Origin: a virus
Taxonomy: Duplodnaviria; Heunggongvirae; Uroviricota; Caudoviricetes
Reading direction: 5' to 3' (one strand)
IMG/VR virus record: IMGVR_UViG_2563366948_000003
DNA: 44,197 nt
Shown: in pieces, positions 1,673-16,242 of the stretch
How positions within the stretch are numbered: the stretch's first letter is position 1
Layout: each line of letters starts with the position of its first letter
The notes under the pieces: model-generated
Databases searched by the model: none
Told to the model about the DNA's origin: nothing
What the model saw: only the letters and a program-made list of their open reading frames with translations
Made by a program: the position numbers and the translations under genes

Positions 1673-1710
1673 ATAATCTCCTTGAGGGAGGGTTACCCCT
1701 CCCGGTCTCG

Positions 1711-2829
1711 TCAGGCCACGTATTCCGGTTTCATATCCGCCAGGGTGATGCTGAATTGATCGTGCAGTTCATCGCCTAAGTGACGCTTTGAAGATGCAAG
1801 CATGCGCTCGGCTTCAGCGAACCGTTCGGCTGCATGCGGCTCGTCGGGCTGGGGCAGGGATTTAATAGCCTCCTCAACCTTGTTGCGTGCATCCACTAGG
1901 TAATAACGCTTTACGGCTTTGTTTTTCAGCTCGGTGAATAGTGCGGATCCCAGCGTAGCTTTCGCCGTTTCAATGTCGGCACGCAGCGATTTGGCGCTAT
2001 CCACGTCCTGAGCAGATTCGATGCGTTCGCGGAAATCATCGGCAAGAGAGTCGGCATTTACCGACGATTCCTGTGTGCTTTGCGTGGTTGTGACGGTGTC
2101 ACCTGAGATATCAGCCAGGCTAACGCGTTGCGGCGTTGGGTTGATCTCTTTTTCTGTGCGCTGTTCAATCTCATCAGGGGTGTACACACCAAGAACAACT
2201 GCAGGGCAATACAGGCGCGCCCAGTATTTGAGTGCCAGATAAGCGATCTGCTGTTTCGGGTTTGATACCCAAAGTGGAGAATTACGTGTGATTACGCTGG
2301 AGAGGAAAACAGGCTCTCCCCAGGTGATATCACTTTCACCGCGAATAACGGCACCTACCCGTACCGACAGTCCTTGTTCATCAGCACTTTCCCAACCGCG
2401 TACCATTTCTTTCTTGTCGTACGTCCCGCCACCTTTCGCAGGCTTTTTAACGGTTATCTCGCGGCTGCTGGCACATTTCGACCAGTCGCCCTCGTACTCA
2501 TAGTGAAAGCGGCCAACGATGGCGTTTGAGCTGGAGATCACCGCATTAACCAGTTGCGCTTCGTATCCCAGGACACCGTTAACCAGGTGCGTCTTTTGCG
2601 CCACGGCGTAAGGGTTCATACCCCACTGCATCGCCTGCATGATGATGGCCATGCAGTCTGCCGGATTGCCGCGGAGGTGCTCAGGCACCGTTACGGCTGC
2701 CTGTGCCATCAACCCGGCGACAGACTGAAGCTGGGTTAAAGCCTGCACGTTGAAAATGGCATTGCTGGCTGAGATCGTGTTTGGAGTCTGCTGTTCAGCG
2801 GTTACGATATTCGTGTTTTCCATCATCAT
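1711..2829 (-). CDS. recT: RecT-family single-strand annealing protein
   Basis: 372-aa ORF immediately downstream of the RecE-like gene (6-nt gap). Central region (NPADCMAIIMQAMQWGMNP...VLGYEAQLVNAV) follows the RecT pattern (CDTMSFVSAIVQCSQLGLEP...IIGYRGMIDLA in E. coli RecT, recalled from memory). RBS AAGGGGA upstream of an ATGATGATG start. Confidence 0.6.
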   Translation of the reverse strand: MMMENTNIVTAEQQTPNTISASNAIFNVQALTQLQSVAGLMAQAAVTVPEHLRGNPADCMAIIMQAMQWGMNPYAVAQKTHLVNGVLGYEAQLVNAVISSSNAIVGRFHYEYEGDWSKCASSREITVKKPAKGGGTYDKKEMVRGWESADEQGLSVRVGAVIRGESDITWGEPVFLSSVITRNSPLWVSNPKQQIAYLALKYWARLYCPAVVLGVYTPDEIEQRTEKEINPTPQRVSLADISGDTVTTTQSTQESSVNADSLADDFRERIESAQDVDSAKSLRADIETAKATLGSALFTELKNKAVKRYYLVDARNKVEEAIKSLPQPDEPHAAERFAEAERMLASSKRHLGDELHDQFSITLADMKPEYVA

Positions 2830-2834
2830 TCCCC

Positions 2835-5800
2835 TTATGCCTGAGTACGCAGCGCTTCAAGGCGGCGCAGGTCGAAGTCGTTCAGTTCGTCGGTGTAGTC
2901 AGCAGTGATTGGCGCTGGCCATTCACCTGTGTCGAATCCGGTTGCGATATTGCGCATCGCTTTGCGGTACTCGAGCATACCCAGCTCCAGTAGTTCAGCG
3001 GATGCCTCGATGATGGCGATCCAGTGGTAGTTCTCGTCTTTGTTGACGAAAATCCAGAAGAACTGATCCAGCGCTGCGGTTTCGCAGTACATAGCCGCGC
3101 TCAGGTGATAATCACGTTCAATAATTTCCCGGTGTAGCCTGGCGCGCAGGCTTTCCTGCTTAACATTCCACATGCTGATGGTTTTCAGGTCAGCACCGAT
3201 ACGCACGCCGTCTAGGTCGATCTCAAGGTCAGGGCGCACACGAACTTCCAGTCCCGTCTCCTCGTCAAAGCCAAAGTAGCTCACCTCAACGGCGCGGCTC
3301 GGGTGGGTTAGCAGCATGCCTGCGGTCGGGTGCGAGAGCAGTGCTGACTGAATTGCCTGCGCGGTGGCAAGTTGCTGGTGGGTAACCAGCACTTTCCCTT
3401 CCGGGTTGTTGCGCCACGCATCGAGCAGCTCGTCGGCGAACACTGCATCTGGTTTGACTGCCTTCACGGCCTGAATCAGATCGGCCTTCGTGCCAGAGAC
3501 TTTCAGCGGTTGCAGCTTCTGAGCTTCCTGCGCGACTAGGTCAGGATTGATAATCGCAAGTTGTTCGAGTAGTGCGTCGCGGCTGCCGCTGGTTTTAATC
3601 TGCGCTGGCAGGGTGGCGTTGTACTCTTTGATGCACGCCTTCATTGCTGTTGCTGTCTTCTTCTGATCTGCATCGATACGTTGGAATTCGGCTGGCAGCG
3701 CCATATAGTTCTGCGCCGTTTCATCCAGGCTAGCGCCCAGCGGCACCAGCGCTGGCAGGGTGGCGTTGTATTCATCCAGCAAAGCTTTGATATCGTCTGC
3801 GCTCAGTTGCGCTGGCAGGCTGGCGTTGTACTCATCAATAAACGCGCGGATCGTTGCCGTGGTGGTAAATGCACCTTCCGGAATTACGGGTTCAACGCTA
3901 AATTCTTCATCGAGCTGTTCTGGCTGCAACGCCAGCGCATGTACCAGGTTTCCCATGTCCAGCACTGAGGAGCGCTCTTTGACGATGGTTTTCTCAACGT
4001 GGCGCGCATTGAAGTACATCAGCGAAACGCGCGCATCTTTTACCTGGGTGGAACTGATGCCGTTGGCAGCGTGGTAAACCTCGTTCGGCAGACCTTCATA
4101 GCGGCCAGGTTCGAAGTAAGCAGGGTACACAACACCCGGTTCGTCAGATTGAGCTTCTGGCTCGGTTTGGGCCGCAACCGGTTCGGTTTGGTTTACAGAA
4201 TCGCTGTTTTGGCTAACAGAATCCGCATTCTGGCTCACATCGGCTTGCTGGCCGGTATGTGACTCTTCACCAGTTTCCAGACTGCTTTCGCCTGACTGCA
4301 CTTCATCACCAGCCTGTTCTTCATCACTGACAGTTTCTTCCATCTGCACATTGCTGGTGGTTTCCTCATTAAGTGGTGAACGGTTATCTGTTTGTGTTTG
4401 TTGATCGCCCATCAGGCCATCAATGGAGAATACGCCGTTGCCCATGTTGGCGATTTGTGGCTGTTTAGCAGCTGTTTTCTGCTCTGCAGCGACCTGCTCA
4501 TTAACCTCATTTTCCCAGCTGACGTCCGACGCATGACCAGCATCAGCCAGCGTTTCTTCTGAGGGGTTTGAGTGGTCATTTTCGGTTAGATTGGCATTGA
4601 TATATGCCCGCAACCGCCCAGGAAAGTTAACCAATTCTGATGATGTGCCGCGGATGAGTGCAAAGATGGCGGCGCGTGAATAGTCCAGGATGCCAGCGGT
4701 TTTGCGCAGCGCCTCAGACCATTCGCTGAATGGACTTTCTTTCTTGCTGACAATCTCTTTAGCGCGACGGTAGACCCCACCAGGTATGTCGTAGATATTG
4801 AAATCCATTGGCAAGGTGGCCAGCGCAATTTCAACATCCAAAGTGTCCAGTGTGTGGACATAGTCGGTATTACGATCGGTCTTATTTCCACCGCCAGCAT
4901 TGGTTTTGACGTCAGTACGTTGAATCTGCGCAACGCGGTTACCTTTCTGCCATTCCTTGACCAGCAGGCCACGGTCGATGTAATCAGTGTTGAACCACAC
5001 AGTCAGGAACTGGATAACTGTTGCCAGCTCCGGTTTTTTACCGTCGACAGGGAAGACTTTCTTAACAGCATTCACGACTTTATGAATATCGTGCTCAATG
5101 GCTTTTTTGAATGCTTCCACATTCTCAGCAGCCAGCAGCAGGTTCTGGATGTACGTATCATCAGTGTCCATCTCAAGGCGGACAATCTCGTTTTTCTGCC
5201 CAGCGTCGATGTGATAGAGATATTCACCATCACCGATGAACTGAGCCAGTACGCGCTGACGGAATGGCAGGGTGGCTACGACGATCAGGTTCGGCTGATC
5301 TGGCTGCTGAGATTGTTCTTCGGTACCGACTTCATCACCAACGCTGGTGGTTTCAGTTTTGAGCAGAGGAAACCTTCCACTGCGCCAGTCTTCAACCAGT
5401 TGATTGCGATCACCTGCTTCTGCGTTCACCCAGTCAGACATGAAAGCAGCGATCACTTCAGGTCCATGCTCTTCACCCTGTTCGAAGATGTCTTTAATCG
5501 CCTGAATCATTTTCCACTCAGCATTAAGACTGAGTTCGCCAACTTCAGGAACATCATTTTTAACCTGCAGCAAGTTCTGGAGATAGGTATTGCTTTCGTC
5601 CAGTGACATTTCGCTGGCAGTCAGCTGCTGCTCTTTAGTGACGTGAGTCTGGTACTTATCGCTCATCAGATGGAAGGCAAAACGGACTGCTGGAGTGCGG
5701 TTTTCTAACGATACATTCTCGTCAGAAGTCGCTACTTCATCTGTATTTTTTACATCGGCAGGGATAGTGGTGACAACGTCGCCAGCGGCCTTTGGCAGCC

Positions 5801-6065
5801 AGGTGCGCCCGTCGTCCTGCAGTTCGTAACGATCACACCAGGTGAAATCAACTTCACCTTCTTCCGGCAGGTCGTCATATACCGGGAAATCGGTGCGGAT
5901 TGGTTTGGCATAATCTTTACCGCGGCCAGTTTCTTCAATTCCGGCTTCTTCCAGTGCCACATCGAGTTGGAGATTGGCGCGCGCTACACTTTTCGCAGTG
6001 AACCAAATCACTGCATCTTTCTTGCCAGACTTCTGACTGGCTTTTATCAGATGGAAAAATTCCAT
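2835..6065 (-). CDS. recE: RecE-like exodeoxyribonuclease VIII (large multidomain protein with C-terminal PD-(D/E)XK nuclease)
   Basis: Long ORF (1111 codons in the track). Likely start is the internal ATG at 6065, preceded by an AGAGGA RBS. C-terminal ~250 aa carry a nuclease-like D...E/D-x-K context (RPDLEIDLDG...DLKT). Position upstream of a RecT-like gene matches Rac-type recET modules. Contains three tandem ~20-aa coding repeats. Confidence 0.6.
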   Translation of the reverse strand: MEFFHLIKASQKSGKKDAVIWFTAKSVARANLQLDVALEEAGIEETGRGKDYAKPIRTDFPVYDDLPEEGEVDFTWCDRYELQDDGRTWLPKAAGDVVTTIPADVKNTDEVATSDENVSLENRTPAVRFAFHLMSDKYQTHVTKEQQLTASEMSLDESNTYLQNLLQVKNDVPEVGELSLNAEWKMIQAIKDIFEQGEEHGPEVIAAFMSDWVNAEAGDRNQLVEDWRSGRFPLLKTETTSVGDEVGTEEQSQQPDQPNLIVVATLPFRQRVLAQFIGDGEYLYHIDAGQKNEIVRLEMDTDDTYIQNLLLAAENVEAFKKAIEHDIHKVVNAVKKVFPVDGKKPELATVIQFLTVWFNTDYIDRGLLVKEWQKGNRVAQIQRTDVKTNAGGGNKTDRNTDYVHTLDTLDVEIALATLPMDFNIYDIPGGVYRRAKEIVSKKESPFSEWSEALRKTAGILDYSRAAIFALIRGTSSELVNFPGRLRAYINANLTENDHSNPSEETLADAGHASDVSWENEVNEQVAAEQKTAAKQPQIANMGNGVFSIDGLMGDQQTQTDNRSPLNEETTSNVQMEETVSDEEQAGDEVQSGESSLETGEESHTGQQADVSQNADSVSQNSDSVNQTEPVAAQTEPEAQSDEPGVVYPAYFEPGRYEGLPNEVYHAANGISSTQVKDARVSLMYFNARHVEKTIVKERSSVLDMGNLVHALALQPEQLDEEFSVEPVIPEGAFTTTATIRAFIDEYNASLPAQLSADDIKALLDEYNATLPALVPLGASLDETAQNYMALPAEFQRIDADQKKTATAMKACIKEYNATLPAQIKTSGSRDALLEQLAIINPDLVAQEAQKLQPLKVSGTKADLIQAVKAVKPDAVFADELLDAWRNNPEGKVLVTHQQLATAQAIQSALLSHPTAGMLLTHPSRAVEVSYFGFDEETGLEVRVRPDLEIDLDGVRIGADLKTISMWNVKQESLRARLHREIIERDYHLSAAMYCETAALDQFFWIFVNKDENYHWIAIIEASAELLELGMLEYRKAMRNIATGFDTGEWPAPITADYTDELNDFDLRRLEALRTQA
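3600..3870. repeat. Three in-frame tandem direct repeats inside the RecE-like gene
   Basis: DNA motif GCGCTGGCAGGGTGGCGTTGTA(C/T)TC occurs three times (~3604, ~3752, ~3810). It encodes repeated peptide EYNA(S/T)LPAQ/L. Confidence 0.7.
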
Positions 6066-6203
6066 GTGAGATCCTCTTTTTTGAGTGTTAGAATCCCCGG
6101 GCCAGAGATAGCGCCCATTGGATGTTTTTTGGTTTGGTATAAATTCCGGTGTAACTTTGGTCGGTGGCACCGGACGTGAATCCCGCCTTGCGCGGGGTTT
6201 TCG

Positions 6204-6365
6204 TTATGCTTCGTGGGCCATCTGGTCGAACGAAACGCAACGTACTGAACAGTAATCACGTTGCTCGCGTTTCAACTGCGTGCCGTGGATAAAGAGCAGT
6301 TCGTTTTTAACTTCCTTCCCTTGCTTGATCGGCTTGCGGCAGTACGCGCATTTTTTCTCCTGCAT
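6204..6365 (-). CDS. Small zinc-ribbon protein (YdaE-like, 53 aa)
   Basis: Hand-translated ORF below the track length cutoff: MQEKKCAYCRKPIKQGKEVKNELLFIHGTQLKREQRDYCSVRCVSFDQMAHEA. CxxC...CxxxC spacing. Lies just upstream of the recE-like gene, where Rac-type prophages carry small Zn-binding ydaE-like genes. Confidence 0.35.
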   Translation of the reverse strand: MQEKKCAYCRKPIKQGKEVKNELLFIHGTQLKREQRDYCSVRCVSFDQMAHEA

Positions 6366-6376
6366 AACTCACTCCG

Positions 6377-6727
6377 TTAATGGCTAAGGCCATGTCCTAA
6401 ACCGTTTAGATAAACCTCAACCAGCAAATCTTTGGTGTAGGTACGTTCGATGCCACGGTGAAGATACAGGCGACCGCGTGCGTTAGCAGATGCGGTCCAG
6501 GTTGAGTCTTTGTGTTTTACAAGCATCCCCGGCTGAACTGCGCCGCGGTTTACTGTCTGTGTACCGTAGTGCTGATGAACCATGATGTACTCCAGTTTTT
6601 CTGAGTGAACTTCGCTGGTGTTGCTGCGGCGCTGATCTTCACGGTTGAGCGCTTTAACTCTGCAATTCACCACCGCGAAGCTCACTCTGTGCTTTGCCCT
6701 TGTCGCCAGGCTGGCGGAACGTTTCAA
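6377..6727 (-). CDS. Hypothetical protein (possibly shorter, from an internal Met)
   Basis: 116-aa ORF on the early-left operon strand. No recognisable motif and start uncertain. Confidence 0.3.
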   Translation of the reverse strand: MKRSASLATRAKHRVSFAVVNCRVKALNREDQRRSNTSEVHSEKLEYIMVHQHYGTQTVNRGAVQPGMLVKHKDSTWTASANARGRLYLHRGIERTYTKDLLVEVYLNGLGHGLSH

Positions 6728-7017
6728 ACCTACTGCGCGTTAATATCACCACCTCATTCCGGTTTTCGTATGCCCCGGACGGCTACTTCGTGGGCTCAAT
6801 GCCTGGGTGGTTCGTGGTGCGTCTTGGTGAGTTAGATTAAATCACTGGTTTATATATATGTCAACTTAAGGTTAGTGTTAATTGTAAATCTGAGGTTTAT
6901 GTGGCTGGGTTTTGTGACACGTCTGCAGAATCGCAGGCAAAAAAAATCCCGACGCTAAGGTCGAGATCGGGGACTTCGTGGCTGGGTGTTGGCGGCTGAG
7001 ATGGTGGGTGAGGGTGT

Positions 7018-7041
7018 AAAAAACCCGGCGCTGTGGCCGGG
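7018..7041 (-). terminator. Rho-independent terminator ending the hicAB-containing operon
   Basis: Stem CCCGGC/GCCGGG (7024-7029 / 7036-7041) with a 6-nt loop. On the minus strand it is followed by a U-tract (A-run 7018-7023 on the plus strand), directly after the stop of the 7049-7474 gene. Confidence 0.65.
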
Positions 7042-7048
7042 TTGGAGA

Positions 7049-7474
7049 TTATTTTCTAGATGATGTTGGGGACCAAGGTAACGTTATAGTATCTAACACT
7101 GTGTTTTTGAACATATTTTCAAAAACTGTTTTTGTACATACATATACATAATTTTCAAAAAACCAAGCATTTTCATTATAAAAATCCTCAGTTACTTCTT
7201 CATCGAGGTCACACTCAAATGTTAGTGTCAAGGTAGCCTCTGCCTTGAACAATACATCCTCACCATCATCAAAATCTTTTTTATCGCGAGGGAAACCAGT
7301 TATCGATGGCTTAACTTCAATAAAGAGCCAATTTCCATCTTCATCTTTTTGAGGAACAACGTGATGCTCAGAAAATTTTAAGCTATATTTTCCGCCTTCA
7401 GAATTATCACTGTCGTCGATAAAAAGGGAAGAACCCTCGAGATCAAATCCCTTAAAGCGAATTTTATCAAGCAT
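7049..7474 (-). CDS. Acidic protein translationally coupled to hicB; candidate SecB-like chaperone
   Basis: 141-aa product from the ATG at 7474, which overlaps the hicB stop (TGATG). Acidic and aromatic-rich. N-terminal KIRFKGFDLEGSS loosely resembles SecB QRIYTKDISFEAP, and C-terminal FFENYVYVCTKTVFENMF...LDTITLP resembles SecB [25 protein letters not shown]. Similarity judged by eye only. Confidence 0.4.
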   Translation of the reverse strand: MLDKIRFKGFDLEGSSLFIDDSDNSEGGKYSLKFSEHHVVPQKDEDGNWLFIEVKPSITGFPRDKKDFDDGEDVLFKAEATLTLTFECDLDEEVTEDFYNENAWFFENYVYVCTKTVFENMFKNTVLDTITLPWSPTSSRK

Positions 7475-7932
7475 CAATGTGGCACTCCGTTGTCTACTGA
7501 AACTTCCCAATAGGTCTCTTCTGTACGTCTACGGGATGAGAAGAAAGTAACTTCTCTAACATCCCTCGGTTTTTCAAAGTGGTAGTGAACCTCTTTTTTC
7601 CCATTAACTGACTCACTGACAGCCTGTTTTACATAATCGTTTAAAGTCATATTCTTAGCTTTAGCAGCTAAATATGCTTTTTTATGCAGGGATTCACCTA
7701 TCCGGATGTTAAACGAACCACTCATTGTCTTATCTGGAGATTTTCCTATCTCTTCACAAGTGGAGAGGTAATCGTCCACGGCCTCCTCAAAGGCTGCACG
7801 GAGTTCTGCAACCGTTGCACCCTCATAAGTGACGAGATCATTTATACATTCGAGTTTTCCATGCATCACCCCATCTTCAAATGAAATGCTGGAGCTACCA
7901 TAGTAACCTTTGTATTTCATCAAGTTATTCAT
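7474..7932 (-). CDS. hicB: HicB-family antitoxin with ~40-aa C-terminal extension
   Basis: HicB-like core (YKGYYGSSSISFEDGVMHGKLECINDLVTYEGATVAELRAAFEEAVDDYLSTCEE...SGSFNIRIGESLHKKAYLAAKAKNMTLNDYV) followed by an aromatic-rich tail (HYHFEKPRDVREVTFFSSRRRTEETYWEV). Start overlaps the hicA stop. The track ORF begins 15 nt upstream at 7947. Confidence 0.8.
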   Translation of the reverse strand: MNNLMKYKGYYGSSSISFEDGVMHGKLECINDLVTYEGATVAELRAAFEEAVDDYLSTCEEIGKSPDKTMSGSFNIRIGESLHKKAYLAAKAKNMTLNDYVKQAVSESVNGKKEVHYHFEKPRDVREVTFFSSRRRTEETYWEVSVDNGVPH

Positions 7933-8179
7933 GATCATCAATCTCATCTAACAGCTGTTTAACTTCTTCCAAGACGTACCTTTTGAGGGTGTTTTCAGGA
8001 TGGGGCTCATGAAAAATGACCAATCTATCAACACGTTGGTTGTAAAATTTACGGCCAGAACCTCGTTTAGCATTCAAAAGCTTGAAGCCATACTGGTTCA
8101 TGAGAGTAACGAACTCATCCCAAGTAAAATTTTTGGGTAAGCCGTCTAACTTTGACTTTAGCTTTTCCTTTCTTCCCAC
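7925..8179 (-). CDS. hicA: HicA-family mRNA interferase toxin
   Basis: 84-aa protein with HicA/YcfA hallmarks (FVTLMNQYGFKLLNAKRGSGRKFYNQRVDRLVIFHEPHP). First gene of the operon, overlapping hicB. Confidence 0.8.
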   Translation of the reverse strand: MGRKEKLKSKLDGLPKNFTWDEFVTLMNQYGFKLLNAKRGSGRKFYNQRVDRLVIFHEPHPENTLKRYVLEEVKQLLDEIDDHE

Positions 8180-8339
8180 GAAGGATACATCCTCTGTTAA
8201 AGGTAGTGCAACTGAAATCTAGTTGCAAGCTATGCTATCTATAGACAAAATGTTTCATTGTTATATCAGAAGATACCCGATCTGTTTCACCTTCAACTAC
8301 TATAATTTGTTATAAGCTATCAACCGGTGGAACTGCGAA

Positions 8340-8438
8340 TTAGCCGCTGGGTGTTGCGTATCCATCGATGATAAACCATGCCATAAACCCCATAGCTACG
8401 ATGAACACCAAGATCGGAAACACTATACCAATTCTCAT
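8340..8438 (-). CDS. Small hydrophobic peptide (32 aa), putative single-pass membrane protein
   Basis: Hand-translated: MRIGIVFPILVFIVAMGFMAWFIIDGYATPSG. AGGGA RBS-like motif 7 nt upstream of the ATG. Lies between the repressor-like gene and hicA. Below the ORF-track size cutoff. Confidence 0.3.
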   Translation of the reverse strand: MRIGIVFPILVFIVAMGFMAWFIIDGYATPSG

Positions 8439-8483
8439 GATTTTATCCCTGTCTACCCATGCTTCCTGGGCACCAGCGGCTCG

Positions 8484-8876
8484 TTACTCGGCATCGCCCT
8501 TAATCCGCCGCCCCATATATTTGGCGTACAGATCGTCGAGTTCCTTCAGGCGCAGTGATACCGCCTTAAGAACTCCACCCTGATCCTCTTCGGGGAGTTG
8601 ACGGAAAAGGCGTAAAAGCTCTTGCTCATTACTTTTTAATCCATCATTGGGCCCTATATCCTGCCCCAAAACCCAGGCTAAATTCACACCAAGCGCATCA
8701 GCTAGCTTAAGTGCGGAGTTTTTCCCAATAGTTCCCCTTACAAACCAGTTGTTAACCGACTGGGATGTTACGCCACAAATTCTGGCCAGATCTGCTTTTG
8801 AGAGATGTTTACTATTCGTGATCTCATTGAGTCGTCTGACCTGTGGGTTATCTGATTCGTGTGTATTTTTTCTCAT
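8484..8876 (-). CDS. XRE-family HTH DNA-binding protein (repressor-like, paralog 2)
   Basis: HTH (LSKADLARICGVTSQSVNNWF) plus a helical C-terminal region (LRLFRQLPEEDQ...LKELDDLYAKYM). No S24 peptidase domain. Likely start at the internal Met (MRKNTHE) at 8876. Confidence 0.7.
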   Translation of the reverse strand: MRKNTHESDNPQVRRLNEITNSKHLSKADLARICGVTSQSVNNWFVRGTIGKNSALKLADALGVNLAWVLGQDIGPNDGLKSNEQELLRLFRQLPEEDQGGVLKAVSLRLKELDDLYAKYMGRRIKGDAE

Positions 8877-8895
8877 GTACAAGAGTATCACTTAG

Positions 8896-9279
8896 CTAAT
8901 CAGCATCGCCCCTGATTCTGCGATTCATGTACTTGGCATATAGTTCATCGAGTTCCTTCAGACGCAGGGAGAAGATCCTTATCATATTCTGCTGTTCTTC
9001 TTCCGGTAACTGTCTGTAGAGCTCCAGAATACGTTGTTCATCAGGCTTAAGACCATCCTTCTCTCCAACATCCTCACCGAGTAGCCAGGCGACAGAAATA
9101 CCAACAGCGTCGGCTATGGCCAGTGCCGATTTCTTACTAATCACGCCTTTTTTGAACCAGCCGTTTACGGCCTGAGGGGTGACTCCAGCTATTCTTGCCA
9201 TGTCTGCTTTGGTAACGCCGCGATCAGTGATCTCAGTAAGGCGCTCCACCAGAACGAGGTTGGGTTCTTCTTTTCTCAT
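8896..9279 (-). CDS. XRE-family HTH DNA-binding protein (repressor-like, paralog 1; CI-like position)
   Basis: Paralog of the downstream gene (VTKADMARIAGVTPQAVNGWF; LELYRQLPEEEQ...LKELDELYAKYM). Divergent from the cro-like gene. Start at 9279 (MRKEEPN); the longer track ORF is probably an over-extension. Confidence 0.7.
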   Translation of the reverse strand: MRKEEPNLVLVERLTEITDRGVTKADMARIAGVTPQAVNGWFKKGVISKKSALAIADAVGISVAWLLGEDVGEKDGLKPDEQRILELYRQLPEEEQQNMIRIFSLRLKELDELYAKYMNRRIRGDAD

Positions 9280-9381
9280 ATGGTCATTGTAAATATTTGG
9301 TTTATGCACGCAATAAATCCAAAGTTTGCATGAAGTATAAATCTGTGGTTTACTTCTGCTATCAATAAGCAGGAGAAGCAC
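9280..9381. promoter_or_regulatory. Divergent switch region between repressor-like and cro-like genes
   Basis: ~100-bp AT-rich intergenic region between divergent HTH genes with imperfect dyads (TTTATGCACGCAATAAA, TTTGCATGAAGTATAAA). Promoters and operators are inferred from position only. Confidence 0.4.
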
Positions 9382-9600
9382 ATGTCCGCACTCGATAAAG
9401 CAATTAAAGCCGCTGGCTCTGCCAGAAAGCTCAGCATCGCGCTTGGTGTGACGAGTATGTCTGTAAGTCATTGGAAGAATCGTGACCAAGGGATCGTCCC
9501 GCCAAGCTATATCTTCCCGATTTTCAAAATGACAGGCGTAACCCCCCACGAGCTGCGCCCTGATCTCTATCCAAATCCCACTGACGGATTACCAAAGTAG
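9382..9600 (+). CDS. Cro/YdaS-like HTH regulator
   Basis: 72-aa protein with HTH (ARKLSIALGVTSMSVSHWKNR), divergent from the repressor-like gene. Resembles the YdaS/Cro family. Confidence 0.7.
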   Translation: MSALDKAIKAAGSARKLSIALGVTSMSVSHWKNRDQGIVPPSYIFPIFKMTGVTPHELRPDLYPNPTDGLPK

Positions 9601-9611
9601 GAGCACTGACA

Positions 9612-10169
9612 ATGCAAACACTTTCTTTTCAACAGAATAACAGAGCGCCATCAGAGCACCTGAAATTCCAGTATCAACACAGTGAGGCTGAAGGCCAGCC
9701 GGTCGATCACCGGGCTATCTGTTCTGCCGTCCGCGCCTGGGCGGCGGCAGAGGGCCGCGTGGCGGTCGCTCTGGCGATTAAAGAGGCTGCCGAACAGGCC
9801 GAGCTTGACAGCATTGACATGACCGGCAGCGCCGATGTGTGGAACGTGAAGCTGTTTCGCTGGCTGGACAACCACGAGAAATCACCGGCCTACCGGGCGA
9901 ACGTCGAGCAGCTGGCGCCGGTAATAATTTCGGTTCTGCCGCTGGCGTACCGGGATCGCGTGATTAAGCACGACTGCTTTGCGGTTCGTGTCGCCAGGTC
10001 GGTGAAAGAAGACGCTGAGGCGATACAGGCTGTCGTCCTCAAAGCCCCCAGACACGAACGGATGAAGGAAATCAGCGAGAGCATCGTAGCCAAGCTCTAC
10101 CTGGACGGACCTGATTCTGTGGCGCCCATTATGGCGATGGTTACAACGATGCTGGGTGGTGCGCTATGA
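9612..10169 (+). CDS. YdaT-like / CII-like regulatory protein
   Basis: 185-aa ORF directly after the cro-like gene. Segment WNVKLFRWLDNHEKSPAYRANVEQLAPVIISVLPLAYRDRV resembles the YdaT family pattern (recalled from memory). Confidence 0.5.
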   Translation: MQTLSFQQNNRAPSEHLKFQYQHSEAEGQPVDHRAICSAVRAWAAAEGRVAVALAIKEAAEQAELDSIDMTGSADVWNVKLFRWLDNHEKSPAYRANVEQLAPVIISVLPLAYRDRVIKHDCFAVRVARSVKEDAEAIQAVVLKAPRHERMKEISESIVAKLYLDGPDSVAPIMAMVTTMLGGAL

Positions 10170-10253
10170 CGGGCTCAGAAATGGCGAAAGCCGCGGTGCT
10201 CGAACACCAACGGCTTTCAGGTGCAAAAACTGTGCGTAATTGCGGAGAACAGT

Positions 10254-11162
10254 ATGTCAAATACCGCTGAAATAATCAATTTCCCAAATAAAACCGAACA
10301 ACCGGGAGGTCGTATGGCCGACCTGTCGAACGGGTATACCAAGGTCGCTAACGAGATCCAACAGCTTAAGCCTCGCCTGAGACTGTCAGGCCGGGAATGG
10401 CAATGTTTTGAGGCGGTGATCTGGCTTACCTACGGCTGGAACAAGAAACAGGACCGCGTGACAAATACGGTTATTGCCGAGCTTACGGGCCTGAGCGATA
10501 CGCATGTATCGGACGCGCTTAAGTCTCTCGCAGAACGCAAAATCATCTTTTCACAGAAGCAGGGCATGATGAAAATCGTCGGTGTAAACACTGACCTTTC
10601 AGCATGGATTTTAGACAAACCGGAAACGGGAAGAAAATTCCCGAAAACGGGAAAATCCTTCCCGAAATCAGGAATAACCTTCCCGAAAACGGTAGACACC
10701 CAATACAAGAACAAGAACAGTATTAAAAGATCTTCGTCCGAGAATTCTGACGAATCCTCTGACGCACGTCTGAAGAAATTTTTATCAACTCATCCTGAAG
10801 CTGCGGTCTACACACCATCCGGTGCGAAGTGGGGCTCTGCTGAAGACCTCGAGACAGCTAAGTGGATTTCCTCCAGGGTGAAGCTGATTAACCCAACCTG
10901 CAAAGCCCCGGACATGACCTCCTGGTCTAACACTGTTCGCCTGATGCGCCAGATAGACAACCGGTCGCACCAGGACATCTGCGCGCTGTATGACTGGGCT
11001 AGCAAACACCACTTCTGGCAGACCAACATCCTGAGTCCCGAAAGCCTGCGTAAGCAGTGGGACAAGCTGACAATGCAGCGTAACGCCGGAGGTGAGCAGC
11101 GCGCTGTCAAGCCAGATCTGGACTTCAACAACACTGACTGGGCCTATGGGGTGATCCGATGA
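10254..11162 (+). CDS. O: Replication initiator, lambda O-like (phage replisome organizer)
   Basis: N-terminal replisome-organizer-like domain (LSGREWQCFEAVIWLTYGWNKK...VIAELTGLSDTHVSDALKSLAERKII). Internal iteron-encoded repeats (FPKTGKSFPKSGITFPKT). 4-nt overlap with the P-like gene. GGAGA RBS before the ATG at 10254. Confidence 0.8.
   Translation: MSNTAEIINFPNKTEQPGGRMADLSNGYTKVANEIQQLKPRLRLSGREWQCFEAVIWLTYGWNKKQDRVTNTVIAELTGLSDTHVSDALKSLAERKIIFSQKQGMMKIVGVNTDLSAWILDKPETGRKFPKTGKSFPKSGITFPKTVDTQYKNKNSIKRSSSENSDESSDARLKKFLSTHPEAAVYTPSGAKWGSAEDLETAKWISSRVKLINPTCKAPDMTSWSNTVRLMRQIDNRSHQDICALYDWASKHHFWQTNILSPESLRKQWDKLTMQRNAGGEQRAVKPDLDFNNTDWAYGVIR
10618..10693. repeat. Iteron array (putative origin of replication) within the O-like gene
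   Basis: Three ~21-bp direct repeats containing TTCCCGAAAACGG / TTCCCGAAATCAGG, analogous to the lambda ori iterons inside gene O. Confidence 0.55.
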
Positions 11163-11848
11163 AATCTCTTGCAGAGCAGATGCGTAACCACGACCGCGAG
11201 CAGATGAGCCGCATGGCCCATAACCTGCCAGAGCAGTACCAGGAGTGCGCGCCGGTCGAGCAGGTGGCGCAGGTATTCAACAAGCTGTTCAACGAGCTGC
11301 GCGCCGCGTTCCCGGCCAGCATGGCGAACTTCCGCACCCAGGAAGACCTGAACGAATTCCGCCGTCAGTGGCTGCTGGCGTTTCAGGAGAACGGGATCCA
11401 CACCATGGCTCAGGTCGATGCCGGCATGCGCATTGCCCGCCGCCAGGAGCGCCCATTCCTGCCGTCGCCGGGCCAGTTTGTCGCCTGGTGCAAGCAGAGC
11501 GGCGGCGCGCTGGGCGTCAACGTTGACCAGGTGATCGCCGAATACTGGGACTGGCGTAACCGCTCGTTCGAATTCATCTCCAGCGAGCAATTTCCATGGT
11601 CGCAGCCGGTCATGTACCACATTTGCGTAGAATTGCGCCACCGCAGCACCGAGCGCCAGTTAACGCATGGTGAACTGGCACGCGAGGCAGGCGATCTGCT
11701 GGACATGTGGGAAAGGCGCGTCACCGAGGGTAAGCCAGTGCCGCCGGTACGCCGGGCTATTGCCGCACCAGCTGCCGAGCAAGGGCCGACGCCGATCCAG
11801 CTGCTGCTGGCCAAGTACAACCGCAACAAGTCGAACGGGATGGTGTGA
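11159..11848 (+). CDS. P: Replication protein P (DnaB helicase loader), lambda P-like
   Basis: Strong end-to-end resemblance to lambda P as recalled (MKSLAEQMRNHDREQMSRMAHNLPEQY...RRQERPFLPSPGQFVAWCKQ). Confidence 0.85.
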   Translation: MKSLAEQMRNHDREQMSRMAHNLPEQYQECAPVEQVAQVFNKLFNELRAAFPASMANFRTQEDLNEFRRQWLLAFQENGIHTMAQVDAGMRIARRQERPFLPSPGQFVAWCKQSGGALGVNVDQVIAEYWDWRNRSFEFISSEQFPWSQPVMYHICVELRHRSTERQLTHGELAREAGDLLDMWERRVTEGKPVPPVRRAIAAPAAEQGPTPIQLLLAKYNRNKSNGMV

Positions 11849-11849
11849 C

Positions 11850-12194
11850 ATGAACATAACAATCCGTGAGCAGGTGCTGGCAGCCCTGCGCAACAACCCA
11901 GGGTTGAACAACGCCAAACTGGCAGGGCTTATCGGCATGGACACCAAAAAGATATCCGGAACGGTGAGCACGCTGCTGGCAGACGGCCTGATCCGCTGCG
12001 AAGGAAAATACGGCCAGCGCCTTTACAGCCTGACCAGCTACGGAATGCGCTTCGCCCGTGACACGATACCTGGCATGAAGCAGGGTAAGTCGAAGTTAAT
12101 TCAGCGGACGGACACAAACGTGATCTGCCAGGAGTGCCGCAACAGCGCGGCGATGAGAAGGGTATTGATGGTTTGGGGGAGGGTAGGGGTATGA
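11850..12194 (+). CDS. Small winged-helix DNA-binding protein
   Basis: 114-aa product from the ATG at 11850. wHTH-like segment (NNAKLAGLIGMDTKKISGTVSTLLADGLIR). The track ORF is extended upstream in the same frame. Confidence 0.4.
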   Translation: MNITIREQVLAALRNNPGLNNAKLAGLIGMDTKKISGTVSTLLADGLIRCEGKYGQRLYSLTSYGMRFARDTIPGMKQGKSKLIQRTDTNVICQECRNSAAMRRVLMVWGRVGV

Positions 12195-12388
12195 AAATCG
12201 AAGATATCAAAAACGTTGCGGTGTTCTTCAATATGAACGGCAAGACAGTAGCGTTACGAATGGATGCTGAGCAGAAGCGGATCGTCGCATTAATGGCGCT
12301 TAACACGGCTGATGCTCGGGCAGAACTGATTGAAGTGCCGCACATGACTTTACCAGCAGACCCAGCCATGGAGGAGGCCGCCCAATGA
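12191..12388 (+). CDS. Hypothetical nin-region protein
   Basis: 65-aa ORF from the internal Met (MKIEDIKN), coupled to flanking genes. Confidence 0.3.
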   Translation: MKIEDIKNVAVFFNMNGKTVALRMDAEQKRIVALMALNTADARAELIEVPHMTLPADPAMEEAAQ

Positions 12389-12930
12389 GCAACATCGACA
12401 AACGTGGATTACGGGAAGCAGCGGAGAAGGCGACGAAAGGCCGGTGGGCTGTTGAGTTCGACGATGAGATTTACTCCACTGACGGCGTGAACCATGAGCA
12501 AATAGCCATGGTATTCAGTGAAAACGAAGCGCGTGATGCTGCATTTATCGCCGCAGCCAACCCCGCCACCGTGCTGGCGCTGCTGGATGAGCTGGAAGCC
12601 GCAGAGAAGCGCATAGCAGAACTGGAGGCGCGTTCATTCAATCCAGCAATTCTGGATGTGGTAGCCGAACGTCAGCGGCAACAGTCGGTTGAAGGATGGA
12701 CTCCTGAACATGACAACGCATATCAAAATAGCGAATTAGCAGATGCAGCGGCTTGTTACGCAATTCATGCGCACAACCAAGGTTTCTCCACTCCAGCACA
12801 TTGGCCGTGGTCGCCTGATTGGTGGAAGCAATCAGGAGCACGCTGCGACTTGGTAAAAGCTGGCGCTCTTATTCTGGCAGAAATTGAACGCATTGACCGC
12901 GCCGCTGGCATTGGCGTGAAGGGGGAATGA
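12385..12930 (+). CDS. Ead/Ea22-like protein
   Basis: N-terminus MSNIDKRGLREAAEKATKGRWAVEF is typical of the Ead/Ea22-like family of lambdoid prophages. Confidence 0.5.
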   Translation: MSNIDKRGLREAAEKATKGRWAVEFDDEIYSTDGVNHEQIAMVFSENEARDAAFIAAANPATVLALLDELEAAEKRIAELEARSFNPAILDVVAERQRQQSVEGWTPEHDNAYQNSELADAAACYAIHAHNQGFSTPAHWPWSPDWWKQSGARCDLVKAGALILAEIERIDRAAGIGVKGE

Positions 12931-12931
12931 G

Positions 12932-13135
12932 ATGTCAAAGTCACCAATGAAACTCATGCTACGGGCCTGGAACAAAGAGCTTAAAAATCCAGAATGGGAC
13001 ATGGGCAATCGTAAACACCGCAAAGCTTGTGCTCGTGATTTTGCCGGAGCCAGCATAGAAACCGATGCTGATATCCCTAACCAAGCCGAAGCAGATGACC
13101 GCCTGGCGGAAGAACTTACTTACTGGACGGACTAA
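12932..13135 (+). CDS. Hypothetical small phage protein
   Basis: 67-aa ORF in the operon. No motif recognised. Confidence 0.35.
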   Translation: MSKSPMKLMLRAWNKELKNPEWDMGNRKHRKACARDFAGASIETDADIPNQAEADDRLAEELTYWTD

Positions 13136-13138
13136 CCC

Positions 13139-13588
13139 ATGACAACTAACCACCCGGCGCACGGTCATGTATCACTCGATCGCCTGCACCAGATACGCGA
13201 AATACTCAGCAACGCAGCAGCACAAAGCGACGGCGGTAATCTCGGCTACGCAATGGCTGATGCTGTGAAGGTGATTGATGGAGTTCTGGAGTCGATGGCC
13301 CGTGAGCAAGTACGCCGTGAGCATGCTACATGGTCACAGGCTACTTTCGGCGATGTCGGTCCAGTTGGTCCGCTGAAGCACCTTTCCAAAGAAGCGCTCG
13401 AGGCGGCAGCTGAACCAAGTGACCTTACCGAATGGGCTGACATGCAATTCCTGTTATGGGATGCGCAACGTCGTGCCGGTATCAGTGATGAGCAGATTAC
13501 CCTGGCGATGGTAGAAAAGTTGGCGGTTAACAAACAGCGCGAATGGCCTGAGCCGAAAGATGGTGAGCCGCGTCTGCACATCAAGTAG
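13139..13588 (+). CDS. DUF550-like phage protein (putative dNTP pyrophosphohydrolase family)
   Basis: 149-aa protein. Segment HATWSQATFGDVGPVGPLKHLSKEALEAAAEPSDLTEWADMQFLLWDAQRRAGISDEQI resembles the DUF550 family. Confidence 0.45.
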   Translation: MTTNHPAHGHVSLDRLHQIREILSNAAAQSDGGNLGYAMADAVKVIDGVLESMAREQVRREHATWSQATFGDVGPVGPLKHLSKEALEAAAEPSDLTEWADMQFLLWDAQRRAGISDEQITLAMVEKLAVNKQREWPEPKDGEPRLHIK

Positions 13589-13641
13589 ACTCTTATGGAT
13601 AATTGAACCCTAATTCATTATGAACATAATAAGGAGTCCTT

Positions 13642-13962
13642 ATGTCTTACATAATGCCTGAAAAAGGCCAAATGAATGAATATGGAATTGAGGCTTTCGG
13701 GATCCCGCTTACCAGTAGGCATGGAGTTGCGATGGAACTGTCTCAAATGCTACGTTTTTCTTACTATGTAGCTTCAGTTGGGCTTGTAAAATGTATTGAA
13801 AGTGTCTTCTATGATTCAGGCTCTTGCTGCTGTAATTTTGAATTTATTCCCGGGTTTAATGAGTATTCGGAGGAGGCAGAAAAAATTAGACAGTGCGCGC
13901 TACGTTCGATTGGGCAATTTGAATGGTTTGGTATGATTGAACACGGCGACATCAACGGCTAA
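13642..13962 (+). CDS. Hypothetical cysteine-rich protein (moron-like)
   Basis: 106-aa ORF with an AGGAG RBS in an AT-rich context and a CCC motif (YDSGSCCCNFEF). Followed by a terminator. Confidence 0.4.
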   Translation: MSYIMPEKGQMNEYGIEAFGIPLTSRHGVAMELSQMLRFSYYVASVGLVKCIESVFYDSGSCCCNFEFIPGFNEYSEEAEKIRQCALRSIGQFEWFGMIEHGDING

Positions 13963-13992
13963 GTGTTTAACTCCAATAGCAAACGAATAAAA

Positions 13993-14015
13993 GCCTCTAA
14001 GTTAGAGGTTTTTTA
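13993..14015 (+). terminator. Rho-independent terminator
   Basis: Stem CCTCTAA/TTAGAGG followed by a T-run (GCCTCTAAGTTAGAGGTTTTTT). Confidence 0.65.
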
Positions 14016-14153
14016 TGTCTGAAAGGTAGCATTACCAAGTCTATGGTTGCCTAGCTCAGTCAGGCTTGTATTTGGTTGCTTAGCAATCAACTCATGCGAC
14101 ATGAGCGGGATCTTTCTAATCATCATTTTCGGTAAATGATTTTGGTTGCTTGG

Positions 14154-14188
14154 TTGACAAAATCGAGAAAATGCGAAAATATATGGTT
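14154..14188 (+). promoter_or_regulatory. Candidate sigma70 promoter with operator-like direct repeats upstream of the 14218 cassette
   Basis: TTGACA at 14154-14159, ~17-nt spacer, then AAATAT. Direct repeat TTGGTTGCTT at ~14073 and ~14143. Confidence 0.3.
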
Positions 14189-14217
14189 TACGAATTCCAA
14201 AAAAAGCGAAACTTGAA

Positions 14218-14868
14218 ATGAGCGACAACCAGTTAGCACCTTGTTGGGAATTTCAGCCTTACCTTGCTGAAAGCAATGTTCGTCAGTTGTTAGCGGAAAT
14301 TGCTAATGTACTCGAGCAATTGTACTACCACAAACACACACTGGACAGTAACTGGTCCGAAGGTGTAAGGGCTTATGATTGGGTCAGAAATCATTTGATT
14401 CAAAGTGAAGGGACACTGCCGGGTCTGGAAATGGTTTCGAAGGGACTGGATTATGTGGTTGCGTTAAATAAAGTGCCGCTGCAGTTCTCCAAAGATTGCA
14501 TTAATAACCCGAAGAAGAAGCATCGCCTTCTTCGAAATAGGGTGGAGCATGAGCAACTTTCATTGTTCGGTGAAACTGAAGCCGAGCAAGATATTACATG
14601 GCGGATCATCGCCGAACCATTTTTATCCGATGAAGAAGATGGCGAGCTGGAATCAACATTGCCTCGCTGGGAAGTGGCTTTAGTTGGGTTTAACGCATAT
14701 GGTGCCCAGATCAGTATGGTTTCACACCAATCTACTGCTTCAGCGCCGCTTATGTCTCTTGATACCAACACTCTTCCGGATGAAGCTGAGATTGGCAAAG
14801 CCTCTCTTCGCCGCCGTAAAAAAGATCAAGATTTGGATGTGAGCAGTAATGGAACATCAAGTGAATGA
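14218..14868 (+). CDS. Hypothetical protein (216 aa), first gene of a two-gene cassette
   Basis: AT-rich ORF with no recognisable motif. Overlaps the downstream HTH-peptidase gene by 20 nt. Acidic C-terminal half. Confidence 0.5.
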   Translation: MSDNQLAPCWEFQPYLAESNVRQLLAEIANVLEQLYYHKHTLDSNWSEGVRAYDWVRNHLIQSEGTLPGLEMVSKGLDYVVALNKVPLQFSKDCINNPKKKHRLLRNRVEHEQLSLFGETEAEQDITWRIIAEPFLSDEEDGELESTLPRWEVALVGFNAYGAQISMVSHQSTASAPLMSLDTNTLPDEAEIGKASLRRRKKDQDLDVSSNGTSSE

Positions 14869-15952
14869 CTTTGCTGAGTATCGTGGGGATAAGCTCAAAT
14901 TAGCCAGAATGGCTGTTGGGCTCTCCTGCGAAGAGTTAGCGGAGAAAATTGGTAAAACAAAACAATTCGTTAGCAAATTGGAAAAAGGGTTTAAACCATC
15001 AGAACAGTTGTTAGAATTAATCTCATCTGCGCTGATGATTAAATCTGATTTCCTATTTACTGAACGAAAATATGCTTTAGAAAGCGATGTTTGCCATTTT
15101 CGGAGTAAAAAATCGAGAACCCAAACATTAACCAATAGTGTTCTGGCAAGGGCGGAGATTCTTAACATTATAATCTCTGCCGTTGAGGGAGAAATCGAGT
15201 TTCCTGATGTTTTCATACCTGAGCACCCCGGTGCTGAATTGCTGACTCCAAATGATATTGAACGTGTAGCGGAAGACTGCAGAAGAGCATGGAACTTAGG
15301 GCTGGGACCTATATCCTCAATGGTCAAACTGGCTGAGAGTTTGGGGGTTATTGTTGCTCATGTGACAGGAGTGGATGACCGCGTAGATGCTTTTACTGTT
15401 CATAACAACAGGCCAGTAATCATCCGAAATAACGTCAAAAAGAGTATATGCAGATTCCGATCAGATTTAGGTCACGAATTGGGGCACTTGGTTATGCACG
15501 AAGGTATAACCACAGGAGATAAAGTGACTGAATCGCAAGCGGATCGTTTTTCAAGCGCGTTGCTAGTTCCTCGATTGTCCTTTATTAAAGAGTTTCCCCG
15601 TATACGAGGAAGACAGTTCGATTGGAACGCCCTAGTTGAGTTTAAGCTTCGGTGGAAGATTAGTCTTAAAATGTGCATTTACCGAGCAACAACTCTAGGC
15701 CTGCTGACGCAGGAGCAGGCAAGAACAGGTTATATGCATTTGAACTCTAAAGGATATACGAAAGTTGAACCAGGAGATGAATTTATTCGCCCGGAAGAAC
15801 CGAGTATGTTAGCTGAGGCGATTGAAATGCTGGATGATGCAACATGGATGAGCATTCTCATGAAAACTGGTTTAAGCCAGGAGTTGGTTAGGGAGTTATT
15901 CTCGGTAAACCGCCCACTGTCAAATCCAAGAAATCTACTTCAACTGGTTTGA
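14849..15952 (+). CDS. Fused XRE-HTH / ImmA-IrrE family (M78) zinc metallopeptidase
   Basis: N-terminal HTH (LSCEELAEKIGKTKQFVSKLEKG). C-terminal domain with the HExxH zinc motif (LGHELGHLVMHE) in ImmA/IrrE (COG2856/DUF955) context. Confidence 0.8.
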   Translation: MEHQVNDFAEYRGDKLKLARMAVGLSCEELAEKIGKTKQFVSKLEKGFKPSEQLLELISSALMIKSDFLFTERKYALESDVCHFRSKKSRTQTLTNSVLARAEILNIIISAVEGEIEFPDVFIPEHPGAELLTPNDIERVAEDCRRAWNLGLGPISSMVKLAESLGVIVAHVTGVDDRVDAFTVHNNRPVIIRNNVKKSICRFRSDLGHELGHLVMHEGITTGDKVTESQADRFSSALLVPRLSFIKEFPRIRGRQFDWNALVEFKLRWKISLKMCIYRATTLGLLTQEQARTGYMHLNSKGYTKVEPGDEFIRPEEPSMLAEAIEMLDDATWMSILMKTGLSQELVRELFSVNRPLSNPRNLLQLV

Positions 15953-15967
15953 CTCAAAGCTTGTAAT

Positions 15968-15991
15968 AAACCCGCTATATGCGGGTTTTTT
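15968..15991 (+). terminator. Rho-independent terminator
   Basis: AAACCCGCTATATGCGGGTTTTTTC: stem CCCGC/GCGGG plus T-run, immediately after the HTH-peptidase stop. Confidence 0.7.
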
Positions 15992-16114
15992 CTTTCTGGT
16001 AGCGCGCTGTGGTAACGCTGTGCCTCCAGCGCTCGCTGAGGCGCTGGTGCGTGCTAATTTGCCGGAGCTTTGTCAGCAGAAACAAATAGCGGCGTAATAA
16101 AACATTGCTAATTC

Positions 16115-16141
16115 AACCCGCTACGGCGGGTTTTCTTTTTT
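16115..16141 (+). terminator. Second, near-identical rho-independent terminator
   Basis: CAACCCGCTACGGCGGGTTTTCTTTTT: same stem as the terminator ~145 bp upstream. Confidence 0.6.
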
Positions 16142-16204
16142 TAATACTGACAGAAAATTAACAATTTGTGCTCTTAAAACGTTGATCATTTCCGTGCATA
16201 GGTA

Positions 16205-16224: not shown

Positions 16225-16242
16225 CATGCAATGGAGGCTATT

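Follow-up and report, generated by a model that had tools for sequence, protein, structure and literature searches.

A tandem of paralogous repressor genes in a Gifsy/DicA-type prophage immunity region: is the second gene an accessory repressor?

Introduction

In discussions of phage immunity groups, one repressor is commonly assumed for each prophage. What does a second repressor gene do in a prophage that already has one? The question is raised by a tailed-phage sequence (Caudoviricetes, IMG/VR record IMGVR_UViG_2563366948_000003) of 44,197 nucleotides, which we call the window throughout. At the position normally held by a single CI, divergent from a cro/ydaS-like gene that matches Pfam YdaS_toxin (9382-9600), lie two adjacent genes for helix-turn-helix (HTH) proteins on the same strand. 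We call the promoter-proximal gene repA and the gene behind it repB. A first-pass annotation, made from the sequence alone, had noticed the tandem, rightly described its position, and proposed that a duplicated repressor might mean heteromeric repression, dual immunity specificity or a repressor/antirepressor decoy. Our own preferred, though tentative, reading of the sequence comparisons is that RepB may be an accessory repressor which gives the lysogen immunity to a second, rival phage group.

Results

Two intact paralogous genes

Both genes were found where they had been annotated (Table 1), and their paralogy holds: RepA and RepB align over the full length with 75 of 130 positions identical (58%), 78% positives and E = 2e-54 (BLASTP), which is far beyond chance. 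The NCBI Prokaryotic Genome Annotation Pipeline (PGAP) makes identical calls for repA and repB in a stretch of Escherichia coli AR_0118 that is 100% identical to the window. Neither protein has a peptidase domain, as had also been stated: the Pfam matches of both are HTH_3 and Phage_CI_repr only, the Pfam scan gave no match to Peptidase_S24 for either at E <= 0.1, and the AlphaFold2 model of RepB (mean predicted local distance difference test score 84.7) consists of helices only.

RepA has a 434-like HTH at the N-terminus and a helical hairpin at the C-terminus. Among solved structures, the nearest in sequence is the 434 repressor's N-terminal domain (PDB 2r63/1per, E ~0.005). In the RepB model a five-helix HTH (residues 11-69) is followed by a linker and a helical hairpin (82-126, with helices 82-92 and 96-126). 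A Foldseek search of this model against the PDB returned only generic XRE matches (the best with E 0.0099) and, for the hairpin, nothing informative. The LPEEEQ-type motif that the two C-termini were said to share is real, but it is not identical in the two proteins (RepA LPEEEQQNMIRIFSLRLKELDELYAKYM, RepB LPEEDQGGVLKAVSLRLKELDDLYAKYM).

It had also been considered that one copy might be a pseudogene, or that the upstream copy might be part of a longer open reading frame (ORF). Neither is the case. The ratio of nonsynonymous to synonymous substitution rates (dN/dS) of RepB is 0.19 against the allele of phage mEp237 and 0.14 against the allele of the E. coli locus L041; in more distant comparisons the synonymous sites are saturated, and dN is still 0.2-0.35. 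Judged by these values, repB is under purifying selection. The exact RepB protein is present on 328 contigs, and its 90% cluster includes many members from Salmonella. We rejected the 217-aa extended ORF upstream of repA as mechanical, since it crosses the operators and runs antisense through cro; the extension holds stop codons in the homologous loci L011, L029, L034, L038 and L039.

RepB belongs to another immunity class

Next, we asked whether repB is a copy of repA. We fetched 209 loci bearing members of the family; their sources were phage records, IMG/VR, species-representative genomes and assemblies of E. coli and Salmonella. Single repressors from other loci share 90-95% identity with RepA. 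RepB has 73-83% identity with repB-class proteins elsewhere, compared with 58% with RepA. Since the two are not each other's closest relatives, a tandem duplication in situ was rejected. To speak of a duplicated repressor was thus misleading: repB is of a different immunity class, whose members elsewhere are stand-alone primary repressors. These proteins are normally the lone repressor of their element, divergent from a YdaS-like cro, and in this role the class is widespread (Enterobacter, Klebsiella, Citrobacter, E. coli and other genera).

Single genes of the family can be sorted by their N-terminus into classes, each of which has a different type of operator. For the repA class of the window it is TAAAC-N5-ATTTA (on the rep-sense strand), for the mEp237/GfhR-like class GTAAAG...TTTAC, and for the SEN34/L041 class TTAAGCC...CTTAA. 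The operators of the repB class are TAAACATTATGTTTA and TAAAC(A/T)TTT(G/A)GTTTA, that is, TAAAC-N5-GTTTA; for example, the right operator region (OR) of the repB-class prophage in E. coli WEM25 contains TAAACATTATGTTTA...TAAACTTTTAGTTTA. RepB keeps 26 of the 28 conserved N-terminal positions, and its recognition helix QSVNNWFVRG, which is invariant across the class, is the one that every repB-class primary repressor has, so that DNA binding has probably been retained. We found no exact repB-type operator within the window.

A module behind different primary repressors

Every tandem that we found has a gene of the repA-like class in first position and a gene of the repB class in second position. 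The same repB N-terminal domain, with the same joint (TAA-GTGATACTCTTGTAC-ATG), stands behind three types of primary repressor: the window type, seen in the window, in AR_0118 and in 1368KP; the mEp237 type, seen in the phage of that name and in many prophages of Salmonella with three distinct backbones; and the L041 type, seen in E. coli. The joint is the same in mEp237 and in the E. coli loci L041-L045 and L047, and shows a few substitutions in the Salmonella locus L049. The window and mEp237 are homologous (98%) over window 8484-9093, which begins at the stop codon of repB and ends in the middle of repA, so that the mobile unit consists of the C-terminal half of the first gene, the joint and repB.

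When we looked for the tandem in related prophages, as the first-pass annotation had proposed, the repB module turned up behind at least three different primary repressors. Of the 209 fetched loci, 195 are single-copy. The tandem is rare in the samples that were free of bias: it was seen in none of the 34 species-representative genomes, in none of the 80 IMG/VR loci retrieved through the family alignment (repA first), in two of the 80 IMG/VR loci fetched with repB (mEp237 itself being one of them), and in four of 5426 complete E. coli genomes.

A sibling prophage in E. coli ET881 (L211), 99.3% identical over window 8924-21700, has one repressor, no repB, and unrelated cargo behind the repressor gene. 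This repressor is identical to RepA except for C-terminal changes, and the OR is 100% identical to that of the window although repB is missing, so the acquisition of repB needed no change in the resident switch. The cargo behind repB varies from backbone to backbone, and RepB is therefore not tied to it. The prophage of E. coli WEM25 (L048) shares the left-arm genes and the YoaK-HicAB cargo of the window prophage but has a single primary repressor of the repB class; heteroimmune siblings able to compete thus exist.

Some further observations concern the recombination history of the region. The ET881 prophage occupies the same kch-side integration site as the window prophage, and the swapped segment is window 7044-8923 (repB and the cargo). 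The window is a mosaic in that positions 1-11930 are 98.2% identical to the AR_0118 prophage (L003), with divergence beyond. Window 8300-8523, which includes the last 40 nt of repB, is 98.7% identical to DNA described as 'immunity region' in the phages HK106, mEp234 and mEp506; the conserved 3' end of the repressor genes of the family may therefore act as a recombination joint for the exchange of cargo.

Second-position alleles and their C-terminal hairpin

Second-position genes are of two kinds, young alleles and an old lineage. Among the young alleles is that of E. coli 1368KP. It shares 100% identity with a primary repressor in Citrobacter pasteurii (L030) and ~99% with the primary repressors of B18271 and WEM25 in E. 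coli (L046, L048). The old lineage comprises the allele of the window and mEp237, that of P0013/L212, and SEN34_42; these are 58-97% identical to each other and were found only in second position. The alleles of L041 and P0002, which count among the young ones, are chimeras of the two kinds.

In the sequences compared here, the hairpin comes in three types. Type I is the consensus and is found in most family members. Type II belongs to a small number of single repressors that are distant from the rest (Phytobacter, Serratia, Symbiopectobacterium). Type III belongs to the old second-position lineage, with the signature LF...(D/E)Q(G/Q)(G/D)(V/I).(K/Q)(A/V)(V/I)S, which was seen only in second-position genes. 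For 30 C-terminal positions, conservation across the family reaches 90% or more. Eight of them are changed in the RepB of the window, and 123 of 134 single or first-position sequences deviate at two or fewer. In RepB, dN is 0.29 for the C-terminal half and 0.14 for the HTH, the reverse of the family pattern. Parallel evolution of the C-terminal changes in the window RepB and SEN34_42 was considered and rejected: the intermediate P0013/L212 is also a second-position gene, which makes shared ancestry of the lineage more likely.

It is probable that the hairpin of RepB is a module for dimerisation and antirepressor contact. Going by the pattern of substitutions, the type III C-terminus probably insulates RepB from RepA (so that no mixed dimers form), from the SOS antirepressor described below, or from both. 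To our knowledge, the surface for dimerisation or antirepressor recognition has not yet been mapped in these repressors, and the second-position signature may help to reveal it.

A switch of the Gifsy/DicA type

RepA, as far as can be read from the comparison of loci, is the resident immunity repressor: its class tracks the operator type, and as the sole repressor in ET881 it suffices. The RepA-type operator pattern has 11 matches with at most one mismatch in the window, where 1.96 are expected, and the five best all lie at OR and at the left operator region (OL; Table 1). These operators are kept in all repA-type loci, and the N-terminal class of RepA co-varies with the operator type across loci. 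The promoters in Table 1 were read by eye; the promoter scan flagged, at its threshold, no sigma-70 sites at OR or OL. The repressor maintenance promoter (PRM) as read by hand stops 6 nt short of the repA ATG (9279), and the repA mRNA may for this reason be leaderless. Single repB-class genes share this layout between PRM and ATG. The lambda cI mRNA made from PRM is leaderless as well.

The architecture of the locus resembles that of the Gifsy prophages, in which the repressors GfoR, GfhR and GtgR are paired with the LexA-controlled antirepressors GfoA, GfhA and GftA (Lemire et al. 2011, PMC3121763). There the antirepressor is encoded by a small ORF with a non-canonical start just after a dinI homologue, and it acts in trans on non-cognate repressors as well (PMC3121763). 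Likewise, small HTH repressors that lack a cleavage domain (~130-155 aa) occupy the CI position here, and outside the immunity region we see an SOS unit that consists of a LexA box, a dinI homologue and a small GTG-initiated ORF. For RepA only, the likeness extends to the site within the immunity region, the divergent cro-like gene and the operators at both OR and OL. Judged by its position, its start codon and its co-occurrence with the repressors, the 82-aa ORF is a candidate antirepressor: homologues of its product are present in 11 of 11 distinct phages whose genomes carry a family repressor, and the window holds only one. Both the type of switch and the SOS-controlled unit, which lies 7 kb off, had been overlooked in the first-pass annotation.

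Moreover, first genes of the mEp237 type, in that phage and in the Salmonella tandems, have two in-frame ATGs (giving forms of 155 and 127 aa) with operators and a promoter between them, which matches what has been published on gfhR and its long form GfhR*, made on induction; the GenBank note on mEp237 gp39 cites a regulator of S. Typhimurium 14028S. In its architecture, and in four of the five features that define the group, the system belongs to the antirepressor-controlled Gifsy/DicA type, where GfoR and GfhR are likened by layout and not by sequence. The difference is that Lemire et al. describe one repressor per prophage (PMC3121763), and we found no second paralogue mentioned there.

The same authors group E. 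coli DicA with GfoR and GtgR (PMC3121763), and the antirepressor Rem controls DicA. DicA can be aligned over the full length, including the LPE(S/E)EQ hairpin (hhalign probability 97%, E 7.7e-11, 101 columns), but with only 26% identity, and its prophage Qin has a single repressor. The alignment with RacR (hhalign probability 93%, E 4.4e-7, 74 columns) covers only the HTH and part of the linker. The Rac prophage is similar in having YdaS- and YdaT-family genes at the cro and cII positions, but it too has a single repressor.

With lambda CI and the 434 repressor the locus shares the position divergent from cro, the three regularly spaced operators at OR together with OL, and a 434-like N-terminal domain. 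The CI/LexA type is marked by a C-terminal S24 peptidase domain with an Ala-Gly cleavage site. The repressors of the window differ in having neither an S24 peptidase nor a domain for RecA-dependent cleavage; their C-terminus is a two-helix hairpin. SinR/SinI of Bacillus subtilis offers an analogy only: an XRE HTH with a C-terminal helical module that is targeted by a small antagonist protein. In the Foldseek search its structure (1b0n) ranked fourth with a weak match (E 0.055, template modelling score 0.40), and there is no sequence relationship.

Discussion

What could RepB do?

We propose the following picture. The locus is the immunity region of a lambdoid prophage of the Gifsy/DicA type, and its repressors, having no cleavage domain, would by analogy be inactivated by a small LexA-controlled antirepressor. 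RepA is predicted to bind the three OR and two OL operators (TAAAT-N5-GTTTA). Genes repA and repB would share a transcript from PRM, with ribosomes probably re-initiating at repB, 19 nt past the repA stop codon. RepB itself is a captured member of another immunity class, for which the cognate operators elsewhere are TAAAC-N5-GTTTA, and it would most likely repress incoming or co-resident phages of the repB class. Such a second immunity specificity would not be reciprocated by the rival phage.

Of the three readings offered by the first-pass annotation, dual immunity specificity fits best. The same module stands behind three types of operator, the OR of ET881 is unchanged and does not co-vary with repB, and there is no exact operator in cis; from these observations RepB seems to be independent of the resident switch. 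Taken together with the conserved HTH of another class, and with one second-position allele that is identical to the primary repressor of another element, this makes a second specificity the most economical explanation.

Several observations weigh against it, however. Prophages of the repB class are found in only 11 of the 5426 complete E. coli genomes, which leaves the benefit of immunity to them in this host uncertain. The N-terminal variant of the window RepB (..SKHLSKADLARICGVTSQ..) was found only in second-position genes, and the best single repressor is 82% identical to it in the DNA-binding domain, so that the true operator of RepB may differ from that of its class. There is no Shine-Dalgarno sequence before repB in the 19-nt joint, and the expression level is uncertain as a result; within the joint, ~10 nt are still similar to the leader that single repB-class genes natively have. 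Finally, the RepA-type operators differ from the repB palindrome at just one of ten specified positions, and RepB may therefore also bind the resident operators.

The last point leads to the idea that RepB is a part of the resident switch, whether by forming heterodimers with RepA through the C-terminal hairpins or by adding a homodimer of its own at the same OR and OL sites, and that it would tune repression or cooperativity. The two hairpins are similar, the genes would be co-transcribed, and young alleles such as those of L041 and L047 keep a consensus C-terminus and could pair with the first-position protein. We nevertheless consider this unlikely, given that the same RepB occurs with three primary repressors that use the first three operators listed above, that OR is 100% identical with and without repB, and that one repressor is enough in 195 of 209 fetched loci and in all 34 species-representative genomes. 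The eight deviations among the 30 conserved C-terminal positions also argue for insulation and not for pairing.

Alternatively, RepB could be a decoy or buffer that titrates a Gifsy-type antirepressor, resident or foreign, and thereby raises the threshold of induction or blocks cross-induction. This would agree with the action of Gifsy antirepressors on non-cognate repressors (Lemire et al. 2011, PMC3121763) and with the conservation of the hairpin across heteroimmune repressors. In addition, the distant locus L035, with a type II C-terminus, has a much more divergent antirepressor homologue (36% identical), although this comparison is confounded by phylogeny; it is the sole diverged-hairpin locus whose antirepressor homologue fell inside the fetched DNA, and it gives the one hint that antirepressor and hairpin type go together. 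A pure decoy, on the other hand, has no need of a conserved DNA-binding domain, and in RepB the HTH is the better conserved half; the window allele is changed at exactly the conserved C-terminal positions, which would make the binding of the resident antirepressor weaker and not stronger. We regard a decoy as improbable. A co-variation of the antirepressor with the C-terminal variant of RepA (PHB10 compared with mEp237) was also considered, but it is weakened by ET881, whose antirepressor has an identical sequence despite a different, consensus-type C-terminal tail of the repressor.

Still less probable, in our opinion, is a role of RepB as a prophage-encoded transcription factor for a host gene or for the cargo downstream (hicAB or others). 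It would be expressed in the lysogen beside the cargo genes, and proteins of the DicA family can regulate genes outside the switch; but each backbone that we examined has a different cargo, the window has no repB-type operator close to the cargo, and the same protein is present in both E. coli and Salmonella. RepB might also have no function and be a passenger that recombination between heteroimmune phages left behind and that has still to decay. This would suit a rare tandem (0 of 34 species-representative genomes, 2 of 160 IMG/VR loci, 4 of 5426 E. coli genomes) in a recombination hot spot, but it is very improbable in the light of the low dN/dS, a second-position lineage whose members have diverged to 58% identity and are still intact (window, P0013/L212, SEN34), the hundreds of contigs and several backbones that carry repB, and a genuine relic in mEp237 that has stop codons, unlike repB. 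The relic is a decayed third C-terminal fragment of the family with two in-frame stops, at 2637-2771 of mEp237 (L001) on the minus strand, downstream of gp37.

Consequences of a second immunity specificity

If RepB acts as an accessory immunity repressor, cross-immunity would be one-sided. For the Gifsy/DicA-type prophages of E. coli and Salmonella, which carry virulence and defence cargo, superinfection, polylysogeny and cross-induction would then have to be read differently. One could speculate further that the old second-position lineage consists of pirated repressors of rivals, with the hairpin rewired against cross-reacting SOS antirepressors, and serves as a weapon in the competition between prophages and not for plain immunity, but we would not expect this to be so. 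In that case the prophage would be freed via RepA at SOS induction while repB-class prophages, co-resident or incoming, are kept locked down, and the host would be monopolised.

Extra genes expressed in the lysogen from the cI transcript are known from lambda (rexAB). Lambda Rex and the prophage-mediated defence of mycobacteriophages are cases of lysogenic-operon genes that protect against other phages. The proposed role of RepB is similar in being directed from the lysogenic operon against other phages, and differs in that the effector would be a second immunity repressor. In the literature that we searched, a searchable library only, which included a paper on the Salmonella lysogeny transcriptome, we found no description of a second or extra repressor or of such a tandem, and the repB counterpart gp38 of mEp237 is annotated as 'hypothetical protein' in GenBank. 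Isolates with the tandem number in the hundreds among those sequenced, and two phages in culture, mEp237 and SEN34, have it as well, which makes the proposal directly testable.

Features of the locus and neighbouring genes

The coordinates of the features are collected in Table 1.

Table 1. Features of the tandem, the switch, the cargo and the SOS unit. Positions refer to the window, except in the last row; PL, left promoter; PR, right promoter.
Feature	Position	Strand	Remarks
repA, primary immunity repressor (promoter-proximal)	8896-9279	minus	127 aa, ATG start, protein begins MRKEEPNLV...
repB, accessory repressor paralogue in second position (putative role)	8484-8876	minus	130 aa, ATG start, MRKNTHESDN...
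repA-repB joint, 19 nt	8877-8895	minus	from the repA TAA stop to the repB ATG; GTGATACTCTTGTAC plus flanks
OR, three 15-bp operators	9290-9304; 9314-9328; 9338-9352		TAAATATTTGGTTTA; TAAATCCAAAGTTTG; TAAATCTGTGGTTTA; 24 bp spacing; TAAAT-N5-GTTT[A/G]
PRM, TTGCGT-16-TACAAT	9286-9314	minus	read by eye; PRM and hand-read PR overlap the OR operators
OL/PL	6836-6899	minus	two exact RepA-type operators, 6838-6852 and 6885-6899, 2.4 kb left of OR
PL promoter, TTGACA, 17 nt, TTTAAT	6864-6859; 6841-6836	minus	read by eye; OL operators flank and overlap it
cro-like gene, YdaS family	9382-9600	plus	72 aa; Pfam YdaS_toxin E 1.4e-13; weak P22_Cro match
YdaT-family gene at the cII position	9612-10169	plus	185 aa; Pfam YdaT_toxin E 1.5e-17
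Terminator region closing the repA-repB-cargo operon	6945-7045	minus	stem-loop and T-run 6968-6945; GC-rich hairpin ~7020-7045
YoaK-like membrane protein	8340-8438	minus	32 aa; cargo after repB, co-oriented
HicA	7925-8179	minus	cargo; toxin-antitoxin pair with HicB
HicB	7474-7947	minus	cargo
153-aa ORF	7049-7510	minus	cargo; no Pfam match
LexA box, near-consensus	16205-16224	plus	TACTGTATAAAAACACAGCA; overlaps a TATACT -10-like hexamer upstream of dinI
dinI homologue	16231-16476	plus	PHROG 189 DinI E 1.9e-27; PGAP calls DinI at the homologous place in AR_0118 and ET881
Candidate Gifsy-type antirepressor, GTG-initiated 82-aa ORF	16594-16842	plus	position and start codon match the description of GftA/GfoA/GfhA
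Two-ATG first-position repressor (mEp237 gp39)	L001 3413-3880		also in L049, L212 and L215-L217

Two further features should be mentioned. In the Salmonella locus L216 the cargo behind the tandem (10546-12098) consists of a HipA_2-like kinase and a DUF3037 protein, so that a toxin-like or defence-like pair again fills this slot. Just upstream of the LexA box and dinI in the window (14849-15952, plus strand) lies a gene for a 367-aa fusion of an XRE HTH_3 domain and Peptidase_M78 (ImmA/IrrE). ImmA-type proteases cleave XRE repressors in other elements. The fusion is also found in E. coli ET881 and in Salmonella L216.

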